Assembly (NCBI GenBank): GCA_000004985.1
Contig: GG738868.1
DNA length: 64,000 nucleotides
Source: Naegleria gruberi
Lineage: Eukaryota
Reading direction: 5' to 3' (one strand)
Position numbers and translations under genes: made by a program. Positions 37,588 through 59,424 of the stretch are shown piece by piece (the first letter of the stretch is position 1; each line of letters begins with the position of its first letter). Under the pieces are notes generated by a model, which was not told where the DNA came from, made no database searches, and saw only the letters and a list, made by a program, of their open reading frames with translations.

Positions 37588-37866
37588 TTTTTTGTCCTTG
37601 AAAAAAACGAACCATTTGTGTGCGAAATTCTATTAATGTACCAAGTTTGAGGAAATGAGCGAGGAAAAAAAATGATGGCGCTCAATAAATTTTTCAGGTG
37701 ATTTTCAAGTTTTTTCCTGTTTTCATCACAATAGATTTAGGAAGAATTGGATATTATTTTAGTGGTAAGGTGGATAAAGCGCGAATTTTCATAGAACTGA
37801 GAAGAATTGGATTGAAATTCAATAAATTGGTTTTAATAAGGTTGTAAAAAATCTAATGGAGTTCCT

Positions 37867-40380
37867 TTATTTAAAGAGTTTGCTGGAAATATTGTTCAAT
37901 TCTTGAATTTGAGAGTTGAGCTGTTGTATCAGAGATGGATCCTTGTCTTTTTGTTGGAGGAGATCATTCATACTCTTGTTTACTTCTGCCAATTGATCAA
38001 CAATGCTAACAGTCTGAATAGATTTGATATTAGATTTAAGTTTTTGCACTTCAGATTGAAAGGAAACAACTGCAATCTTCTTATTCTTTGAAATTTCAAA
38101 TTTAGAATTTTGTAAATCGACCATACTATTGTCTGTTAATTTTGAAAAAGCTCTCACTTTGCCCTCCTCATCTTTTCCAGAAAGTAGGTGTTCTACAAAT
38201 TCAATAAATTCAGCACCAAGTATATTCGAAGCCATTTCACTGTGTTCCGACCTTTGCAAGTAGATGGACAATAGTGATTTGGAAACAATTGTTTGAACTG
38301 AGAGATTGTCGCTTTCAATTGCTAATTTGAAAAATTGTTGCAATGTTTGTGTGAATTCATCAGACAACTTATTTCTTGTAATTGACTCTACCAGGCTACA
38401 AATGCAAACTTTGATTCTATCTGATCTAGCCCAGCAAATCTGTTTCAAATTATTCAAAATATCATTTAAAAAGTTGAAATCTGAGCCAATTTCTGGCATT
38501 GAAACTTGGTCCCTTAAACAAAGAATGGCCTCTTCTAAATATTTATCCGAAACTGTTGATTGGAGCTTATTGGTAAGAATAATGGTTATCATCTTTTTAC
38601 AGGATTCTGCAGGTAATTTCCCTTGTTGAGTAACATTTTTCAGCAATATAACAAGTGCTATAGAGAATGGATCATCATTTCTATCTTTCAACTTGTTGAT
38701 TATTGAGGTGATGCATTTCCTCAGCTCAACTACACGAATGGAACAAGGAAGAATTGCAAGTTGAGATATACCTTCTTCTGATAAAATGTCTGTAAAGTTA
38801 GTGACCTGTTTGTGATCCTTGATATCCATTTTACCTAGTAGTGGCCTTAATATTTTTTCAACAACCATCCACTCGACATTTTCACCCTGTTGTGAATTGG
38901 ATAGTCTCAACTCTTGTGGTGCCAAAAACAAATTATGAGAGATGACACCAATCAATTCCTTCAAATAGTCTAAATAAGGTTGTTGGGATCCAGAGTTGTT
39001 GTTAAACAGTGTAGCAATAATATCTATACAAAATTCTCTGGCAATATCATTATTCGAAACATCAAAAAGTTCTTTCCATAATGTTACTTGAATATCTGAC
39101 AATAATTGAGAATCCTTATTCTTTACAATAGCAGAAAGAGTGTTTTGAAGAATGGTTTGATACAAGGAAATTGAATCTGAAATATCCAGCATTAATATAC
39201 TATCACAATATCGGATTTGCTTAATTACATTTTCTATATATTTTCCATATTTCTTGTCAGAATTAATTAGGAATGAAAACAAGTATGTCTTGGCAGCAGC
39301 ATTCAAATAATCTGGAGATGCAGGCTTGATTGATAAATAGGCTTCAAGAGAAGTATTTTGAAATGGTATTAAGAGGAATAGTTCTACTGTTTTGTTCAAC
39401 ATTTGTTGAACTACTTCGCTTCTTCTTGGCATTAAGAGCATTCTTGTAACTGAGTTTGAAAGGGATTCCAAAATCAATTCTTTTTGCCCTGATAAATAGT
39501 CTATATATGCAGTGGCTACGGCAGATAGTAGAGTAATTCCTTTTCTTACATTTGATTTCTTCTTTAGACTTTCACAAATTTCAACAATTACAAATTTCAA
39601 AACATCCATAATTGTTTCGGATTGCTTTCTTTTAGATTCGGTATAGTGTTGAATTGCCATAACACAAGAGGGAATACCTGTAAATAAGTGAATAAACACA
39701 TTTTGAATATTGTCATTGCTGAAAGAGTGATTGAACAATCCTCTACACATTAAAAGATATTGCATCATGAAATTGTCATCAATATTCTCAAAACTACTAT
39801 CAGAAAATAATGTACATAATGAATCCATATATAAAGTAAAGCATGCTTCTACTTCTGCTTGAATGTCTTCCGATGATGATGATTCGTTTTTTATCAATCC
39901 CATTCCTTCAAAAAAATCAATCATCATTTGATGAATTTCATAAGCGTGTACAATTGAACGAAAGTGTTTACCTTCTTTTGCAATTCTAGTAAAGACAGCC
40001 AAGAAGGATCGGAGTACTCGGAAAGCCTTTACACTTTTTTCAGCTTTGCAAAATTCAACACAAATTGCCAAGCCTTTAGTAACTTCCATAAAGTCAAATA
40101 TATCATCAATACTTGAACAATTAGAAAAAGATTTGTACATTGATGTAAAACAAATCAGAGAAATTAATGAAAATCCATAAGAAAGTGATGTTTTGGCTTC
40201 ATCATCACAAACCTGTTCCGATCTACTATAATATTGGTCCAATGCATACATGTAGGCTTGTTTAATTTGTTCCAAACCATTCTCTGGATGAGCCAGCCTT
40301 TTTCTATTTTCCACATCAGAAGGATCACTCAGTACGCTATCCACAATTTGATACAATTCTTGTTCTGTGAGTGCACTCAT
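37867..40380 (-). CDS. Large all-helical (ARM/HEAT-like) hypothetical protein, 837 aa
   Basis: The ORF-track start 40452 is GTG. The first ATG (MSALTEQELYQIVD) is at 40380. No family motif recognised. Start codon lies 87 bp from the divergent POC1 start. Confidence 0.5.
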   Translation of the reverse strand: MSALTEQELYQIVDSVLSDPSDVENRKRLAHPENGLEQIKQAYMYALDQYYSRSEQVCDDEAKTSLSYGFSLISLICFTSMYKSFSNCSSIDDIFDFMEVTKGLAICVEFCKAEKSVKAFRVLRSFLAVFTRIAKEGKHFRSIVHAYEIHQMMIDFFEGMGLIKNESSSSEDIQAEVEACFTLYMDSLCTLFSDSSFENIDDNFMMQYLLMCRGLFNHSFSNDNIQNVFIHLFTGIPSCVMAIQHYTESKRKQSETIMDVLKFVIVEICESLKKKSNVRKGITLLSAVATAYIDYLSGQKELILESLSNSVTRMLLMPRRSEVVQQMLNKTVELFLLIPFQNTSLEAYLSIKPASPDYLNAAAKTYLFSFLINSDKKYGKYIENVIKQIRYCDSILMLDISDSISLYQTILQNTLSAIVKNKDSQLLSDIQVTLWKELFDVSNNDIAREFCIDIIATLFNNNSGSQQPYLDYLKELIGVISHNLFLAPQELRLSNSQQGENVEWMVVEKILRPLLGKMDIKDHKQVTNFTDILSEEGISQLAILPCSIRVVELRKCITSIINKLKDRNDDPFSIALVILLKNVTQQGKLPAESCKKMITIILTNKLQSTVSDKYLEEAILCLRDQVSMPEIGSDFNFLNDILNNLKQICWARSDRIKVCICSLVESITRNKLSDEFTQTLQQFFKLAIESDNLSVQTIVSKSLLSIYLQRSEHSEMASNILGAEFIEFVEHLLSGKDEEGKVRAFSKLTDNSMVDLQNSKFEISKNKKIAVVSFQSEVQKLKSNIKSIQTVSIVDQLAEVNKSMNDLLQQKDKDPSLIQQLNSQIQELNNISSKLFK

Positions 40381-40467
40381 TTTTTTTCCTTGTTTTTTAA
40401 GAACTTCTTGTTGGTGTTGTAACTTGTTTTTGGCGCCATATTTTTGCGCCACTCCAATACAAAAAAA

Positions 40468-42122
40468 ATGAGTGCATTTACATCACAAACTGCAGACGAT
40501 CCAACTCTTGAGAGAACCTACAGAGGTCATCATGGTACAATAACAGCACTTAGTTTCTGTCCAAGTATGAAGCGTATGGCTTCGGTGTCAATGGATTCAA
40601 CATTGTATATTTGGAATTTTAAACCAAACCTTAGATCATACAAATACCAACAACATGAGAAGGGAGGTGTGATGTGTGTCGAATTTTCTCCTCTTACAGG
40701 TAAATTAGTGGCAACTGGTGGTAAAGATAAGACTATTAGACTTTGGCAACCAACTATTGAAGGAAAATCAACCATCATCAGAGGACATACAAACACTGTG
40801 AGAAGTGTACACTTTTCAATGGATGGAAAACGTTTATTGTCTTCATCCGATGATAAGACAATCAAGGTATGTTATTCAATTATTAATTGAGGCAACTAAG
40901 TGTCACTTTTTTATCAGCTGTGGTCCATTTCAAATCAACAATTTATTCAGGTCTTTTCCGGTCACTCTAACTGGGTAAGAGCAACAGATTTCTCACCTGA
41001 TGAAAGATTGATTGTCAGTGGAAGTGACGATAAAACTGTGAGATTGTGGGATATCAAATCAAACAAATGTATAATGTCTCTTGTGGAACATACTGATAAT
41101 GTTAATGATGTTCATTTTTCTCCTGATGGAAATTGTCTAGTTTCTTGCAGTGTTGATAAAACTGTTAAGGTGTGGGATGTAAGACTTGCAAAGAAACTCC
41201 TCCAACATTTTACAGGACACGAAGATATTGTAAATCAAGTTAGCTATCATCCGAGTGGAAATTATATTATCAGTTGTAGTACAGATCAAACTATGAAGAT
41301 TTGGGATACTAGAGAAGGAAGACTCTTTTATACAATTAGTGGACATGCTGCACCAACTACAGCTGTCACGTTCTCTCCTCTAGGGTAGGTTTCAAACCTT
41401 TCATCTATTATTAATTATTACTATTTTAAAGTGATTACTTTGCAAGTGGTGGCGCTGACAACTTGGCCATGGTTTGGAAGACAAATTTTGATAAATCGCT
41501 TCCAAATTATCTATTTGAGAACAATCTTGCTCCTCCTCAATCTAACATTAATACCTATGCTGGTATTGAAGAGGACCAAATGGCTGATAGATTATTCAGA
41601 AATGTTCAAGAAAGACCTCAAACTGCCCCAACTGCTTCTCAACCAATTCCTTCAAACCTTAGAAGTCCAATCATGAGACAACAACCACAACATGTGCAAC
41701 AACCAATGGAACAATCTTTCAATCAACAATCCATCCTTCACACTCCAAAACAACAACCAAGCACCCCACTAAACACTCATCACAACCATCCACAACCAAC
41801 TCAACATCAACAACAACCTAGGCCACAACCGCAACTCAACAGTCAAAGTACTAACTTCCAATCTGTATACCTCCCTCCTCCAATACAAACTGATAACCTT
41901 CCTCCAACTCTTTCTAATACATTGGAACATATTCTAAGACAATTGGATATCATTACACAAACTGTTAAAGTTATGGAGGATCGTTTAACACTGACGGAAC
42001 ACAAGCTCTCTAAAATTGAAATCAATCAAAAGAAAATTATACAGATGGAATTGGCCAACCAGCTGGCTCATATGAATATTCATACTCCACAATTATCAGA
42101 AATTGATGAAACTAATTTATAA
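40468..42122 (+). CDS. POC1: Centriolar WD40 protein POC1 (7 WD repeats + C-terminal coiled coil), 3 exons
   Basis: Exons 40468..40866, 40918..41384, 41432..42122 (donors GTATGT, GTAGGT). The WD region is colinear with human POC1A/B: DDPTLERTYRGHHGTITALSF.., GKDKTIRLWQP..GKSTIIRGHTNTVRSVHFS..SSSDDKTIK|LWSISNQQF..GHSNWVRATDFSPDERLIVSGSDDKTVRLWD..VSCSVDKTVKVWDVR..YHPSGNYIISCSTDQTMKIWD..GHAAPTTAVTFSPLG|DYFASGGADNLAMVWKTNFD. The C-terminus is Q/P-rich followed by a coiled coil. ORF-track pieces 40444..40890, 40900..41388 and 41463..42122. Confidence 0.8.
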
Positions 42123-47359: not shown

Positions 47360-47391
47360 CAAAATATTTAAAGTTAAGCGAAGAGAAAAAA

Positions 47392-47509
47392 GACTACAGC
47401 ACCACAGGTTCCCAAGTTGTCTCCAACCTCAGTACTGATGTGGCTCGACGATGCTTAACTTCTCAAATCGGACGGGATGAGGTGCATTCATCGTGATATG
47501 GCCGTAGCC
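47392..47509 (-). rRNA. 5S: 5S ribosomal RNA gene
   Basis: The minus-strand sequence GGCTACGGCCATATCACGATGAATGCACCTCATCCCGTCCGATTTGAGAAGTTAAGCATCGTCGAGCCACATCAGTACTGAGGTTGGAGACAACTTGGGAACCTGTGGTGCTGTAGTC aligns along its length with eukaryotic 5S rRNA. Helix I ends pair (GGCTACGGCC / GCTGTAGTC). The loop C and loop E regions are conserved (CCGATCTCGTCTGATCTCGGAAGCTAAGCAGGGTCGGGCC analogue). A T6 Pol III terminator follows (47386..47391). Confidence 0.85.
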
Positions 47510-54153: not shown

Positions 54154-56380
54154 TTATAAAAGAGCATCCTGTAAGAAAATAAGCTCTTCAATGTAGTGGC
54201 AGTACTTTCTCAATTGAGGTTCATCATCTCCAAGAATTTCTTTTCTAGGAGTAATCTTGGCTTCCTCGTTTTGGATTTGGTCATTATTATAGATGTCCTT
54301 ATACTTTGCATAGAGTTTTTGGAATCTATCCTTTCCAAAAATCTGTTCGTTCTGAGTAATTAACTTGGTCACTCTATCTTCCAATCGTCCCACAACTGGT
54401 ACGTCATCATATTCAGTCTGATCATAATACTCGTCTTCGTCATCATTTTCCTCTTCATCTTCATTATCACTGTACTCATTTTCTTCATCTTCACTTTGAG
54501 TTTCATACTCAATGTCTTCAGAATCAACTGTCTCACTGTCATCACTATCTCCAAACATTGTGTCTTGTTGCTTGTCCTTCTCAGATTCAGGAAGTAAATT
54601 CATGATGGATTCCTTCTTTTTCTGGAGTGTTTCGATTTTCTTGTGAGTTAAATTGATCATTTCAGTGTATTCCTTCTCAAGCTCTGAATCTATTTCAGCT
54701 TGTCTTTGCGTTATGGATTCAATATCGGTAGGTGATTTGACTTGGTCAACTTCCTTCTTTAAGCCCTTTTCTGAAGCCAAAATATTATTTTGGTTGTGGA
54801 ATTGGTTGTATTGTTGGTTTTTAGCGACCAATCTATTGGCATGGCTCTCAATTCTTGCCTCTTGAAGTTTTCTCTTTTCCTGTTCTTCCTCTTGGGCTCT
54901 CTTTTGTTGTCTCTCGAATAAAATTCTTTCCTTCTCATTTGAGAATTGATTTTGTTTGGACTCGAACTTTGATGGTACATTGAGGTTTTGGAATTTCTTA
55001 CTGAACTCAGAGAAATTATTCTCCTCTCTCTCTTTTTTAAGCTTTTCCTCTTTTTCCCTTCTAACTTGTTCCAACATTTTTTCAACTCTCATTTGCTCCT
55101 TGTGAAGCTTTAAAATTTCTTGATCTATCTTCTTTTCCTTCACTACTTGATTTGAAGAGGATGGTCTGGATGATGGAAGAGGTTGAACACTAGGTTGAAC
55201 CTTTAAGATTTGTGGTTTAGGAACAGATTTAAGATCCGACGGTATAGGAGTTTGATTTCTTGCTGTTTGGGGTTGAACCACTTTTCTTGCAACGATATGA
55301 TTTGGATTGGATGGAACAGGTGATTTTTCAGATACACCTGTTGATGGCACAGGAGAAGCTGGAGGAGTGCTATCAATAATTCTCGAATTCAAAATACCCA
55401 ACTCAGAAAGCTGGGCAGTAAGATTGGCCATTTCTCCTTCTGGAACAATATCTTCAACTTGATCTTGAGCTAAAACCAACTCCCCTGTTGGAGATAATGT
55501 AAGCATTTGTTGTCTAATATATTTTACAATAATTGGGGTTTGTAAAATTTCTTTAAGCGTTGGTCTCTTCGATGGTCTTGTTTGGAGACATTTAGTGATC
55601 AATCCTACGAGTTGACTATTGTAATGGTTCACATTCTTGATTGGGGAATAATAACCTTTTTGAATATTAAGGAAAAGCATTTGAATATTTTTTCCTTTGA
55701 ATGGCAAAGCACCTTGGTTAACCATTTCATAAAGAATCACTCCCAAAGCCCAAACGTCCGATTTATAACTATATTTTGATCCTCCACATTGTTCTGGACT
55801 ATTGTGAATGTCAGTAAATTCAATTTAACTCTTAATTGACTTACCTCATGTACAATGGCGTTCCAATTGTAGTTTGGGCCATTTGCTCACAAGTTCTCAT
55901 TCCTGATTCATCAAACACTTTTGCAATACCAAAATCTCCTAATTTAACATTTCCCTTCTCTGATAAGAAAATATTTTGTGATTTCAAATCTCTGTGTAAA
56001 ACCTTTTGATTGTGAATAAAATAGAGAGCCAGAGCTGATTGGACAAACAATTTCAAAACAGTCTTTTCTGGAACTCTTTGATTGAGATAATTTTTCTGAA
56101 TAAAGTTCGATAAGTCACCTCCTTTGCAAAAGCTCATAACAATACACAAGTTGCTCTCCTCATCCATAAATGAATCAATGTATCGGACAATGAAGGGATG
56201 TTGAAGTGTTTGCAAGAGCTTGACTTCTTGCTTGGCACTATTCTTTTCCTTTTGAGATTGACCCTTCAATGGAATCTTTTTCATCACATATTTCTTATCA
56301 ATATTAGTTGTTGAGTGCACTACAAAGACACTTCCATAACTTCCACTTCCCAATTTCTTTTCGACTACGTATCTATTCAT
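54154..56380 (-). CDS. NIMA-related protein kinase (NEK) with long coiled-coil/acidic C-terminal region, 2 exons
   Basis: Exon 1 56380..55845 (MNRYVVEKKLGSGSYGSVF..HRDLKSQNIFL..KLGDFGIAKVF..TTIGTPLYMS) joins exon 2 55798..54154 (PEQCGGSKYSYKSDVWALGVILYEM..) through a 46-nt GTAAGT..TACTGAC..AG intron, restoring the GTPxYMSPE activation-segment motif of NEKs. The C-terminus is E/K/Q-rich coiled coil with an acidic tract. Confidence 0.8.
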
Positions 56381-56603
56381 TGTTGTTGTTGTATAATATT
56401 AGTATAATTTTGTAAAATGATGTTGCTGTTGTATTATTATTATTCGTGCAATATAACCTTCTTCACCATATGGAACAACAAAAGATACTCTCCCTTGAAG
56501 TATTGCAATGATGATGGTTGAATATTTTTTTACTTTGAACTTTTGTAGACAATTTTGGCGCCAAACAATAAAATTGCAATTTTAAACATGTAACGTTCCA
56601 ATA

Positions 56604-57393
56604 GACATCCGGCAACGCGTTTTTAACGTTTTGGTGTTAAAAGGTTTTGAAACCTTATCACTACGTTTCATGACAGACAATCAAACTTCGTAAACTAAAC
56701 TTTAACGTGCAAAGACCACTTATTGATATGCAAATAGTCTGTGAAGTTATTTTTACAAAGACAGTCCCATGAAAAACGTTTTAAAACGTTGCAACTACAT
56801 TTTATTAAATGATTTAATATTGATACGTGGTACTGGTTGTTCTTTTTTGTGTATCTTTACTACATAGTAATCTAGTCTCTCCTCAACGTCAATTTGTTTA
56901 GTTAAATCGGTAACTTTTGGGAATGTTAGTTTCAAAGTATATGTTAAACCTTTTTCGCCAATAGGATCTTTCTTGCTAATGATTTCATCTGTGTCAAAGA
57001 TGATGTCTTCATCAAATTTACCAACACTAAATTGAAACTCCATCATATTAGGTCTCTTTTCGGATGTTTTTGGGATAATTTCTATGCCACCAAACTTTTT
57101 AAAAATCCAATAAATATTGGATTTTGTTATTACGACGCATGGTTTAAACATTATAGGAACGTCTGTATGATTTACAACTTCGACGTAGTTGTTTTTGACG
57201 ACTGCATTCACACCTCTTGTTGGTGATAACATAATAATTTCATCGTCAGATATGTTGCAAAACAACACGAAAAGTTGAAGACGAATAAAACGTAATAAAA
57301 TGTTTGTTCAACGTTGACGTTAATCATCATTCATTTTCAAACGTTCAAATCGCGATTTAAAAAATCGCGATTTTCAACGCGTTGCCGGATGTC
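56604..57393. mobile_element. Candidate non-autonomous DNA transposon: 790-bp element bounded by perfect 18-bp terminal inverted repeats with TA flanks
   Basis: Left end GACATCCGGCAACGCGTT (56604..56621) and right end AACGCGTTGCCGGATGTC (57376..57393) are perfect reverse complements, each flanked externally by TA. Subterminal regions on both sides are studded with ACGTT/AACGTT and ATCGCGAT palindromic motifs. The GC-rich ends contrast with the AT-rich surroundings. The element encloses ORF 56795..57268 on the minus strand. Confidence 0.5.
56795..57268 (-). CDS. Hypothetical 157-aa ORF inside the TIR-bounded element (not a recognisable transposase)
   Basis: Uninterrupted ORF. No DDE/RNase-H-like or HTH motif recognised by eye. 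Confidence 0.3.
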   Translation of the reverse strand: MLFCNISDDEIIMLSPTRGVNAVVKNNYVEVVNHTDVPIMFKPCVVITKSNIYWIFKKFGGIEIIPKTSEKRPNMMEFQFSVGKFDEDIIFDTDEIISKKDPIGEKGLTYTLKLTFPKVTDLTKQIDVEERLDYYVVKIHKKEQPVPRINIKSFNKM

Positions 57394-57690
57394 TAATATA
57401 CAACAACTCTAATAAGAACAACAAATATTAATGACAATAATTTTCTTCACTACTGTACTGTGTTACTGGATCATGACAGGATGAAAACCCAACTTGCTCA
57501 TTAAAACGTGAGGCACAAGAATTAGACTATTTTTAAATACAAAAAATTGAATCAAATCATCATTAGAATTTTATCAGTTGCCTTCCTCTTCTGTTTTAGT
57601 CTCATCAGAGAATTTTCAAACGTGATCGTGGTGGCCACCATCAACTCTCTCTCGGAATCTACATGAAGAAAGAAAATAGTACTACAACTT

Positions 57691-59424
57691 GTGATGGAGT
57701 ATTTTAATAATTTATTGAGCAAGACGGGCAAGTTAGCCTATGGAAGCAGAGAGAATGTTCAACTTTCGGGGAATCAATCGACACAAGCATTGAATAGACA
57801 AACTTTGGAATTGTACTCTATGGAAATGGCTGATATTGCAAAGGAGTCATATGAGTTGGATTTTAGTAAAATTCCACTCAATAAGAATGTAGTGCTTGTG
57901 TTGGGAGATCAATCTGCTGGTAAATCTTCATTCGTTAATTATTTATTCTCTGGATCTAGCATTAGAGAAACTGGTGCCAATGCCATTGATACTCAGTTTA
58001 CAATTTTGGAATGTGTTAGTGAAAAGGAATTTAGAAATATTGTTGGAATTTCAAAATATGATAATTTAATGAAAGAATTCAATAGGAAAAAAAGAGATCC
58101 AAATTTTGATATTGACGAATGGAAATCTCAACCATTAGAGAGGCAAATAACAGACGAAAGAGAAAATATTCTATATTGTGAACTTTCACAGACTGACAAG
58201 ATGAATAGATATCGTCAATTTTATGATTCTACTATGAAAACTGTGCTCATAAAACATCATGAGCTAGTTAAAGCATATGTGGTGAATGCCAGATTTATAG
58301 ATGGAACTGATATGGAGAAAATGTATCAGGGAAATGTTCAAGAGAGAAAGAAACAGAGAAAGAAAGAGAAGGAACTTTCAGAGTTTGTTGATAATATTTG
58401 CACCACGACTAAAAAGAAGGAACCTGCAGAATCTGAATGGGAACTACTAGATCCAAAAGCTATCAAGAAGAATAACTCACAGAAAAACCTGGAGGAAGAT
58501 GATGGAGAAAAATGGTTGGTGGAAAATTTGATTTTCATTGATACACCAGGATTTAATGGTTCCATGAATTTGGATGTGGAAAAATTCAAAGCAAATATTG
58601 AGGTATTGGAATTCTTTTACAAAAACTCTTCATTAGTGTTGTTCCTCTTGAGTCCAGCACATTTGTTGAGTATTGGAAATTCTCTCTACATGTTACAACT
58701 GACCATAATTGATCAAGAAACAAGAGAGAAATTGTACAAACATGTATATAGTCAATTACAAATCACTGATAACACCCTACAGAATGGCAATAATGTACAG
58801 CAGCCAACACCTTCGTCTGGTGGATTAGTGAGTTCTATTAGCAAGACAGTGTTGGATACATTGTTGAGTGGATGCTACTCTGCATTGGAATCTAATTTCA
58901 AGAGTATTACATCCTTGTATAGTGGAGGTCCAAAAAAACAAAAGGATTATTATTTTGGATCCTCAATCTATGACAAGCTTTATTTTGTCATTAACAAGAT
59001 AGATACTGTAAAGAATGTAAATTATTGCCATTTCGAACTTGGATGTTCAATAGGGAGAAACTTTAAATTTCTTCCATTGCCAACAGCATCCAGAGTTCTA
59101 TGCATCGCGTGTCCAAATGAAATAAGGAGTCAAATAGCATCCACCTCTTTTATCAAGAGGAAAGATGTCAACTTGGCAAACGTGAACTTTGGAGATTTAC
59201 ACCAATTGGAAAAGATCATTAACACCCTACGAGATGAAAAACAGATTCAGTTAACATTCATCAATCACATTCAGTACATGTTTGAAAAGATACAAGCCAA
59301 ACATCAAAATATGAACTATTACAATCAGTACATGTTAGGAACAGTCTATGAACGAGCTCAAAATATTTGTAATCTTTGTTGTGATCCTACTCCTGATGAG
59401 TTACGAGATGAGCAATCTAACTAA
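57691..59424 (+). CDS. Dynamin-superfamily GTPase with EHD-like G domain
   Basis: G1 P-loop VLVLGDQSAGKSSFVNYL, switch region ..TGANAIDTQFTILE, G3 LIFIDTPGFNGS. This is followed by the EHD-like block NSSLVLFLLSPAHLLSIGNS, which parallels EHD/sarcalumenin after DTPG. 577 aa, single exon. No EH domain recognised. Confidence 0.5.
   Translation: MMEYFNNLLSKTGKLAYGSRENVQLSGNQSTQALNRQTLELYSMEMADIAKESYELDFSKIPLNKNVVLVLGDQSAGKSSFVNYLFSGSSIRETGANAIDTQFTILECVSEKEFRNIVGISKYDNLMKEFNRKKRDPNFDIDEWKSQPLERQITDERENILYCELSQTDKMNRYRQFYDSTMKTVLIKHHELVKAYVVNARFIDGTDMEKMYQGNVQERKKQRKKEKELSEFVDNICTTTKKKEPAESEWELLDPKAIKKNNSQKNLEEDDGEKWLVENLIFIDTPGFNGSMNLDVEKFKANIEVLEFFYKNSSLVLFLLSPAHLLSIGNSLYMLQLTIIDQETREKLYKHVYSQLQITDNTLQNGNNVQQPTPSSGGLVSSISKTVLDTLLSGCYSALESNFKSITSLYSGGPKKQKDYYFGSSIYDKLYFVINKIDTVKNVNYCHFELGCSIGRNFKFLPLPTASRVLCIACPNEIRSQIASTSFIKRKDVNLANVNFGDLHQLEKIINTLRDEKQIQLTFINHIQYMFEKIQAKHQNMNYYNQYMLGTVYERAQNICNLCCDPTPDELRDEQSN

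Follow-up and report, generated by a model that had tools for sequence, protein, structure and literature searches.

A 790-bp inverted-repeat block carrying an orphan gene between a kinase and a dynamin-like gene of Naegleria gruberi: a probable non-autonomous DNA transposon

The kinase-dynamin locus

The window, by which we mean the whole 64-kb stretch of DNA analysed here, encodes a dynamin-family GTPase (57694-59424, plus strand) whose sequence agrees at 100% identity with a predicted N. gruberi protein in NCBI; the window is therefore N. gruberi nuclear DNA. The N. lovaniensis ortholog of this dynamin-like protein shares 61% identity with it, and that of Willaertia magna 54%. Its gene starts at ATG 57694 on the plus strand, and a gene for a NEK-type protein kinase (Pkinase, E 8e-43) starts at ATG 56380 on the minus strand. 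The kinase gene is listed as two ORFs because a 46-nt GTAAGT...AG intron at 55799-55844 (minus strand) splits the kinase domain, which it interrupts between YMS and PEQ. The two genes are divergent, and the spacer of 1313 bp between them holds a block of 790 bp (56604-57393) that is bounded by inverted repeats and contains a single long ORF. At 56554-56565, within the promoter common to the NEK kinase and dynamin-like genes, is a perfect E2F-type palindrome, TTTGGCGCCAAA. It stands 37 bp to the left of the putative insertion, and the block cuts it off from the dynamin-like gene. In N. lovaniensis the sequence TTTTTGGCGG stands at about L002 9893-9903.

We compared the locus with that of the sister species N. 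lovaniensis, where the order and orientation of the Kelch, kinase and dynamin-like genes are conserved. The distance between the start codons of the kinase and dynamin genes is 269 bp in N. lovaniensis vs 1313 bp in N. gruberi. No homolog of the ORF was found by tblastn in the 22-kb N. lovaniensis locus, nor did anything there resemble the ends of the element. The presence or absence of the block at the conserved kinase-dynamin locus thus holds as a difference between the two species. A base-exact empty site was not found in N. lovaniensis, whose intergenic DNA aligns equally poorly to the flanks and to the element itself. In Willaertia the kinase does not adjoin the dynamin gene, and there is therefore no outgroup with which to separate an insertion from a loss. 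From the repeats and the composition of the block we infer an insertion in N. gruberi rather than a loss in N. lovaniensis.

Ends, composition and motifs of the block

The 18-mer GACATCCGGCAACGCGTT stands at 56604-56621 (the left terminal repeat, plus strand) and its exact reverse complement at 57376-57393, which confirms the perfect 18-bp terminal inverted repeats of the sequence-only reading. With up to 3 mismatches allowed, these two remain the only matches to GACATCCGGCAACGCGTT in the 64-kb window, vs 0.01 expected from shuffles. TA lies on either side of the 18-nt repeats (56602-03 and 57394-95), and since TA is self-complementary, it extends the inverted repeat to perfect arms of 20 nt, TAGACATCCGGCAACGCGTT at 56602-56621 and its reverse complement at 57376-57395. 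In the whole 64 kb, no other perfect inverted repeat reaches 17 nt with arms lying no more than 6 kb apart.

The flanking TA had been taken as the target duplication of a Tc1/mariner or Stowaway-type element. It is indeed present on both sides, but as a clear duplication it does not stand, because it is part of the 20-nt repeat and because a second reading fits the flanks equally well. The left flank is AATA (56600-56603) and the right flank TAAT (57394-57397), and together they also allow a 19-nt repeat with a 3-bp duplication AAT (56600-02 and 57395-97). TA is therefore not unambiguous as the target duplication. The 8-nt flanks agree at just 4 of 8 positions.

The block is set apart from its surroundings by CpG dinucleotides at an equal G+C content (0.327 in the block vs 0.336 in the host). 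Its CpG observed/expected ratio (o/e) is 1.62, whereas other 790-bp windows have a mean of 0.44 (sd 0.17, maximum 1.02), and it contains 34 CpG vs 9.5 expected (Poisson P about 7e-10). The shift coincides exactly with the inverted repeats: the adjoining promoter flanks of 223 bp and 300 bp have about 13 CpG/kb vs 43/kb inside the block. The ORF by itself has a CpG o/e of 1.03, vs 0.25-0.36 in four neighbouring coding regions. The claim that CpG-rich ends stand out against the background therefore holds for the richness, but the excess is spread over the whole block and not confined to the ends. A CpG island of the shared promoter was considered as the source of this richness and ruled out, the promoter DNA outside the repeats being at background level. 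The context of the CpG also differs. The tetramer ACGT accounts for 38% of CpG tetramers inside the block and 9% outside, and TCGA, the host's commonest CpG context, is yet found only once in the block.

The host DNA itself is heavily depleted of CpG, with an o/e of 0.44 in the window and of 0.25-0.36 in coding regions. A loss driven by methylation is a misfit with the N. gruberi methylomes, in which 5mC amounts to 0.28% without CpG preference (PMC12344493); present-day methylation therefore does not account for the depletion. The contrast between block and host in CpG is best read as reflecting a differing sequence history.

Short palindromes containing CG are concentrated in the block. ACGT occurs at 16.5/kb within it vs 1.06/kb elsewhere in the window, all window occurrences of TCGCGA and ACGCGT fall inside it, and 6 of the 15 AACGTT sites of the window lie in 56592-57345. 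Read along the minus strand, on which the ORF is encoded, the non-coding stretch 5' of the ORF (57269-57338) has AACGTCAACGTT at 57310 and a short upstream ATG...TAA, and the non-coding stretch on the 3' side (56622-56794) has AACGTT at 56625, 56775 and 56785 together with several ACGT variants. The right end is of a long form (57339-57393, minus strand) and consists of AACGTT at 57340, two AAATCGCGATTT boxes at 57347-58 and 57362-73, and the 18-nt terminal repeat at 57376-93. Subterminal palindromic repeats had been described inside both ends, and the enrichment of ACGTT-type motifs bears this out. The symmetry does not hold, since the ATCGCGAT boxes occur only at the right end (57349 and 57364) and the AACGTT at 56592 lies just beyond the left boundary of the block. 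The CG palindromes and AACGTT-type repeats near the ends are probably transposase-binding sites.

The orphan reading frame, its relatives and a second copy

The ORF (56795-57268, minus strand) has 157 codons with a GTG start; from the ATG at 57232 the product would be 145 aa. As estimated from base composition alone, a frame of this length is expected about 0.05 times per whole window. Scored by codons against host genes, the ORF reaches 0.178 bits/codon, and its other five frames score -0.33 to -1.1; for reference, host coding chunks score 0.308 ± 0.103 and host off-frame chunks -0.54. The GC3 is 0.293 in the ORF and 0.291 in the host. Because the codon score and the GC3 are host-like, and in a single frame only, we regard the ORF as real coding sequence: by these measures it is, or very recently was, a genuine coding frame adapted to an AT-rich genome.

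The product is an orphan. It had been described as a 157-aa protein without recognisable transposase features, and this was borne out in HMM-type searches, where no Pfam family matched even at E up to 10. A sequence search of the PDB was empty, no paralog was present among annotated Naegleria proteins, no relative was encoded on viral contigs, and a word-indexed homolog search gave no matches. The exhaustive homolog search gave three proteins only: a self-like fragment (P0010), P0011, which we rejected as a low-complexity false match, and P0012. A profile built from the ORF and P0012 found no additional homologs. The predicted fold is a plain all-beta sandwich (low-confidence model), and the product shows no signature of a nuclease, a recombinase or DNA binding. 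For the product alone, the nearest known comparison is with the beta-sandwich domains of the small heat-shock alpha-crystallin and CS (p23/SGT1) kinds, whose HSP20 and CS profiles were unmatched. We rejected an identity as a small heat-shock protein, which had no sequence support (hhalign probability 0.2%).

P0012 (287 aa) is the sole relative of the ORF, at E 2e-4 in a search of 1.84 billion proteins. The BLASTP alignment shows 33% identity over 49 aa, including VP[IL]MFKP and YW[IV]F. The protein comes from a protist and from three metagenome or read-archive samples, in which three identical contigs (L004, L005 and L006) represent one locus. A divergently oriented transposase gene of the DDE_Tnp_4 (PIF/Harbinger) type (E 6e-28) stands 60 bp away from that of P0012, and the locus adjoins a eukaryotic peptidase S28 gene. 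On L004 (374-2801) the DDE_Tnp_4 gene stands between two genes whose products have no known domain, one of 184 aa and that of P0012. The CpG o/e of the pair formed by the P0012 and transposase genes is 0.6-0.8, vs 0.27 in the neighbouring gene. No convincing inverted repeats were seen around the pair, P0012 gave no match to a Myb/SANT domain, and the locus has no end sequences in common with the window element. The transposase beside P0012 may be domesticated or degenerate, since terminal repeats are not visible at the L004 locus.

The self-like fragment P0010 (59 aa) is a gene call on a metagenome contig of 527 bp from ENA (L007), not an N. gruberi annotation. Nucleotides 113-479 of L007 match the last third of the ORF and its 3' flank. 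The match to the window copy has 5 substitutions in about 365 nt (about 98.6% identity), together with a 14-nt frame-breaking deletion and a 9-nt insertion, the latter in the non-coding stretch on the 3' side of the ORF. Nucleotides 1-112 have no match in the window and contain 1 CpG, and the remainder of the contig contains 18 CpG at an o/e of 1.62. As the first 112 nt are unrelated and CpG-poor, the L007 copy is joined to different DNA. Judged from this alignment, L007 is a truncated, decaying copy of the block fused to different, CpG-poor DNA. Its source could be another strain and not a second locus in one genome.

L007 breaks off at nt 527, with ...GCCGGATGT, 1 nt before the terminus of the element. 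A break at this point fits an assembly-graph break caused by several copies with different flanks, for which it is suggestive only. The L007 end, ...AAAAACGTTCAAATCGCGATTTGAAAATCGCGATTTGCGTCGCGCTGCCGGATGT, matches the window copy's right end (88.9% identity over 54 nt) and not its left end. Because L007 carries the long-form end on the side that corresponds to the left end of the window copy, we propose that the ends of the family were originally about 52 nt with two AAATCGCGATTT boxes each. Such an ancestral end of about 52 nt would have comprised a terminal GACATCCGGCA(A/G)CGCG, two AAATCGCGATTT palindromes and one AACGTT. The left end of the window copy is a shortened one, without the 34 nt that bear two ATCGCGAT boxes; these 34 nt, which lie between two CGTT motifs, were probably lost by a deletion between the CGTT microhomologies. 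The perfect 18/20-nt repeat would then be the remainder.

A search for other copies through their ends had been suggested. The protein search yielded the truncated L007 copy with its long-form end, but the scans of viral, prokaryotic and metagenome DNA by end sequence gave only chance matches. Within the 64-kb window there is no second copy of the repeat or of the block. The 18-mer scan of viral contigs gave one match, a chance occurrence in GC-rich DNA. A pattern of box plus terminus had zero matches in viral or prokaryotic genomes and 72 in metagenomes, all of them arising by chance in bacterial DNA rich in GC; about 55 of the 72 fall in one gut-bacterium gene. An internal 30-mer of the element had no match in prokaryotic genomes. 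The scan with the double ATCGCGAT box returned two phage operator-like sites only, both unrelated. On these two phage contigs (L008 3841-3865; L009 2355-2379) tandem AAATCGCGATTT palindromes lie just 5' of genes, and we rejected them as relatives of the element, the resemblance of these operator-like sites being one of chance in otherwise unrelated DNA. A matching autonomous element with a DDE transposase, which the sequence-only reading had advised looking for, did not appear as a partner in these end-scans of viral, prokaryotic and metagenome DNA.

Transposon family and competing explanations

We consider that the block is probably one copy of a non-autonomous DNA transposon that is bounded by terminal inverted repeats and has an intact orphan gene inside. 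The evidence thus favours the part of the sequence-only reading that called it a non-autonomous element with a novel ORF, and does not carry the part that placed it in Tc1/mariner or Stowaway. It would be a Naegleria class II element, of the cut-and-paste type, that inserted into the short divergent promoter between the NEK-type kinase and dynamin-family genes. No transposase gene is present in the element or in the 64-kb window, and the block would therefore have been moved by a transposase encoded elsewhere. The ORF would be either a passenger or what is left of an accessory gene, and its product not the mobilising enzyme. That the block arose by transposition and moves in trans, what the CG palindromes do and which superfamily it belongs to are all, in our reading, inferences.

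The flanks fit TA with 18-nt repeats (Tc1/mariner or IS3EU-like) and AAT with 19-nt repeats equally. The assignment to Tc1/mariner or Stowaway from TA is thus not established, AAT fitting as well and a transposase partner not having been found. The ends of Tc1/mariner elements usually start with CAGT or TTAGG-type motifs, and those of the window element do not. Some Tc1-like elements have an IR/DR layout, which the two boxes per long end resemble here. The window element is like Stowaway-type or 'submariner' MITEs in being shorter than 1 kb, with short perfect terminal repeats and TA on both sides, in its AT-rich insertion site and in having no transposase. It is unlike these Tc1/mariner-derived MITEs in that they have no coding capacity and the block has an intact frame of 157 codons; with this coding-like ORF, the label MITE fits poorly and we did not adopt it. 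'Submariner' MITEs of Pandoravirus and Acanthamoeba are mentioned in PMC4495683.

Among the other superfamilies, autonomous Harbingers have two genes, for a DDE_Tnp_4 transposase and for an accessory protein. The window element is like PIF/Harbinger in that a 3-bp duplication is possible and in that P0012, the ORF homolog, is encoded beside a DDE_Tnp_4 gene. It is unlike them in that P0012 is without a Myb/SANT match and without nearby inverted repeats, and in that the two proteins are homologous over a short stretch only (33% over 49 aa). The canonical PIF/Harbinger duplication is TAA/TTA, vs AAT here; a 3-bp TWA duplication is not seen, AAT being the only 3-bp duplication possible. P0012 is thus a weak lead to PIF/Harbinger and not a classification. 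With Ac/Ds-type (hAT) elements the block shares many short CG-containing repeats within about 200 bp of each end, and the subterminal AAACGG hexamers of Ac are comparable to the AACGTT repeats found here. However, hAT duplications are of 8 bp, and since the 8-nt flanks match at 4 of 8 positions only, the window element is no hAT member. Inspection of the flanks by eye likewise gave no fit to duplications of the hAT, Mutator, P, Transib or piggyBac type (4-9 bp or TTAA).

Three other explanations of the block were weighed against a transposon copy. The block might be a young lineage-specific host gene, in which case the repeats and CG palindromes would serve the gene itself in regulation or insulation. 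The ORF is intact and coding-like with a codon usage and GC3 like the host's, it sits in a divergent, promoter-rich intergenic position, and there is only one copy in the 64-kb window, all as this explanation expects. It is nonetheless unlikely in our view, because the composition switches exactly at the repeats and the CpG level of the ORF is 2-4 times that of host genes, because a frameshifted, truncated copy with the same end lies next to unrelated DNA on L007, and because both ends have a 52-nt structure in common, one of them in decayed form, as is typical of transposon termini. The sequence-only reading had itself named what would favour a host gene, namely a single copy conserved in related species; we found a second copy on L007 and no copy at the N. 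lovaniensis locus. Decidedly unlikely is that the block is recently acquired foreign DNA, from a giant virus, virophage, polinton-like element or AT-rich endosymbiont, bounded by repeats through chance. Its CpG and ACGT signature is far from that of the host at equal G+C, and no homolog of the ORF turned up in those cellular proteomes that were searched. In N. gruberi, insertions of viral origin and young transposons are reported as distinct, methylated regions (PMC12344493), and the report of viral insertions there agrees with a foreign source. Yet no viral contig has a relative of the ORF or the ends of the element, the block is just 790 bp with a single gene, and the ORF homolog stands beside eukaryotic-type Harbinger transposase and peptidase S28 genes.

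It is highly improbable that the block is a minimal autonomous element, in which a protein of 145-157 aa binds the CG palindromes and moves the element or recruits a host enzyme. The ORF has been kept intact between the ends, and the sole homologous domain is encoded beside a transposase gene, as would be expected if the protein had such a role. Against it stand the lack of any nuclease, recombinase or DNA-binding signature in the product and its predicted plain beta-sandwich; to our knowledge there is no transposase this small and all-beta.

For the non-autonomous transposon copy that we prefer, one extension can be put forward, although we hold it to be unlikely. The ORF and P0012 may belong to an undescribed transposon-borne accessory family, a small beta-sandwich protein that travels with PIF/Harbinger transposases of protists. 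The N. gruberi element would then be a stripped derivative that kept the gene for its function, for example in binding the ends or in assembling the transposase, and the CpG-rich signature would mark a recent horizontal arrival in Naegleria. If this is true, the ORF family would be a new component of Harbinger-type systems; otherwise the result is one of routine repeat annotation.

The find itself is of a fairly ordinary kind, most probably a small transposon without a transposase. In N. gruberi, repeats are reported to occupy about 5% of the genome, most of them unclassified (PMC6125883; PMC12344493). There is little detailed literature on Naegleria DNA transposons, and we found nothing specific in it on MITE, Harbinger or mariner families of Naegleria. 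As a young element with clear ends, the block offers a handle for finding the autonomous partner, and it is a marker that may vary between strains. It would also offer a natural example of a divergent promoter divided by a transposon, 37 bp from an E2F-like site that stands upstream of the NEK kinase gene.

Two further features of the window were noted away from the block. A lone 5S rRNA gene lies amid protein-coding genes at 47391-47509 on the minus strand (Rfam RF00001, 105 bits). The motif TGAGTGCACTCATTTTTTTT has three inverted-orientation occurrences within 3 kb, at 40360-40387 / 40461-40488 and 37662-37684, close to the ends of an ORF of 861 aa, and could be either a small repeat or a common motif of promoters or terminators.
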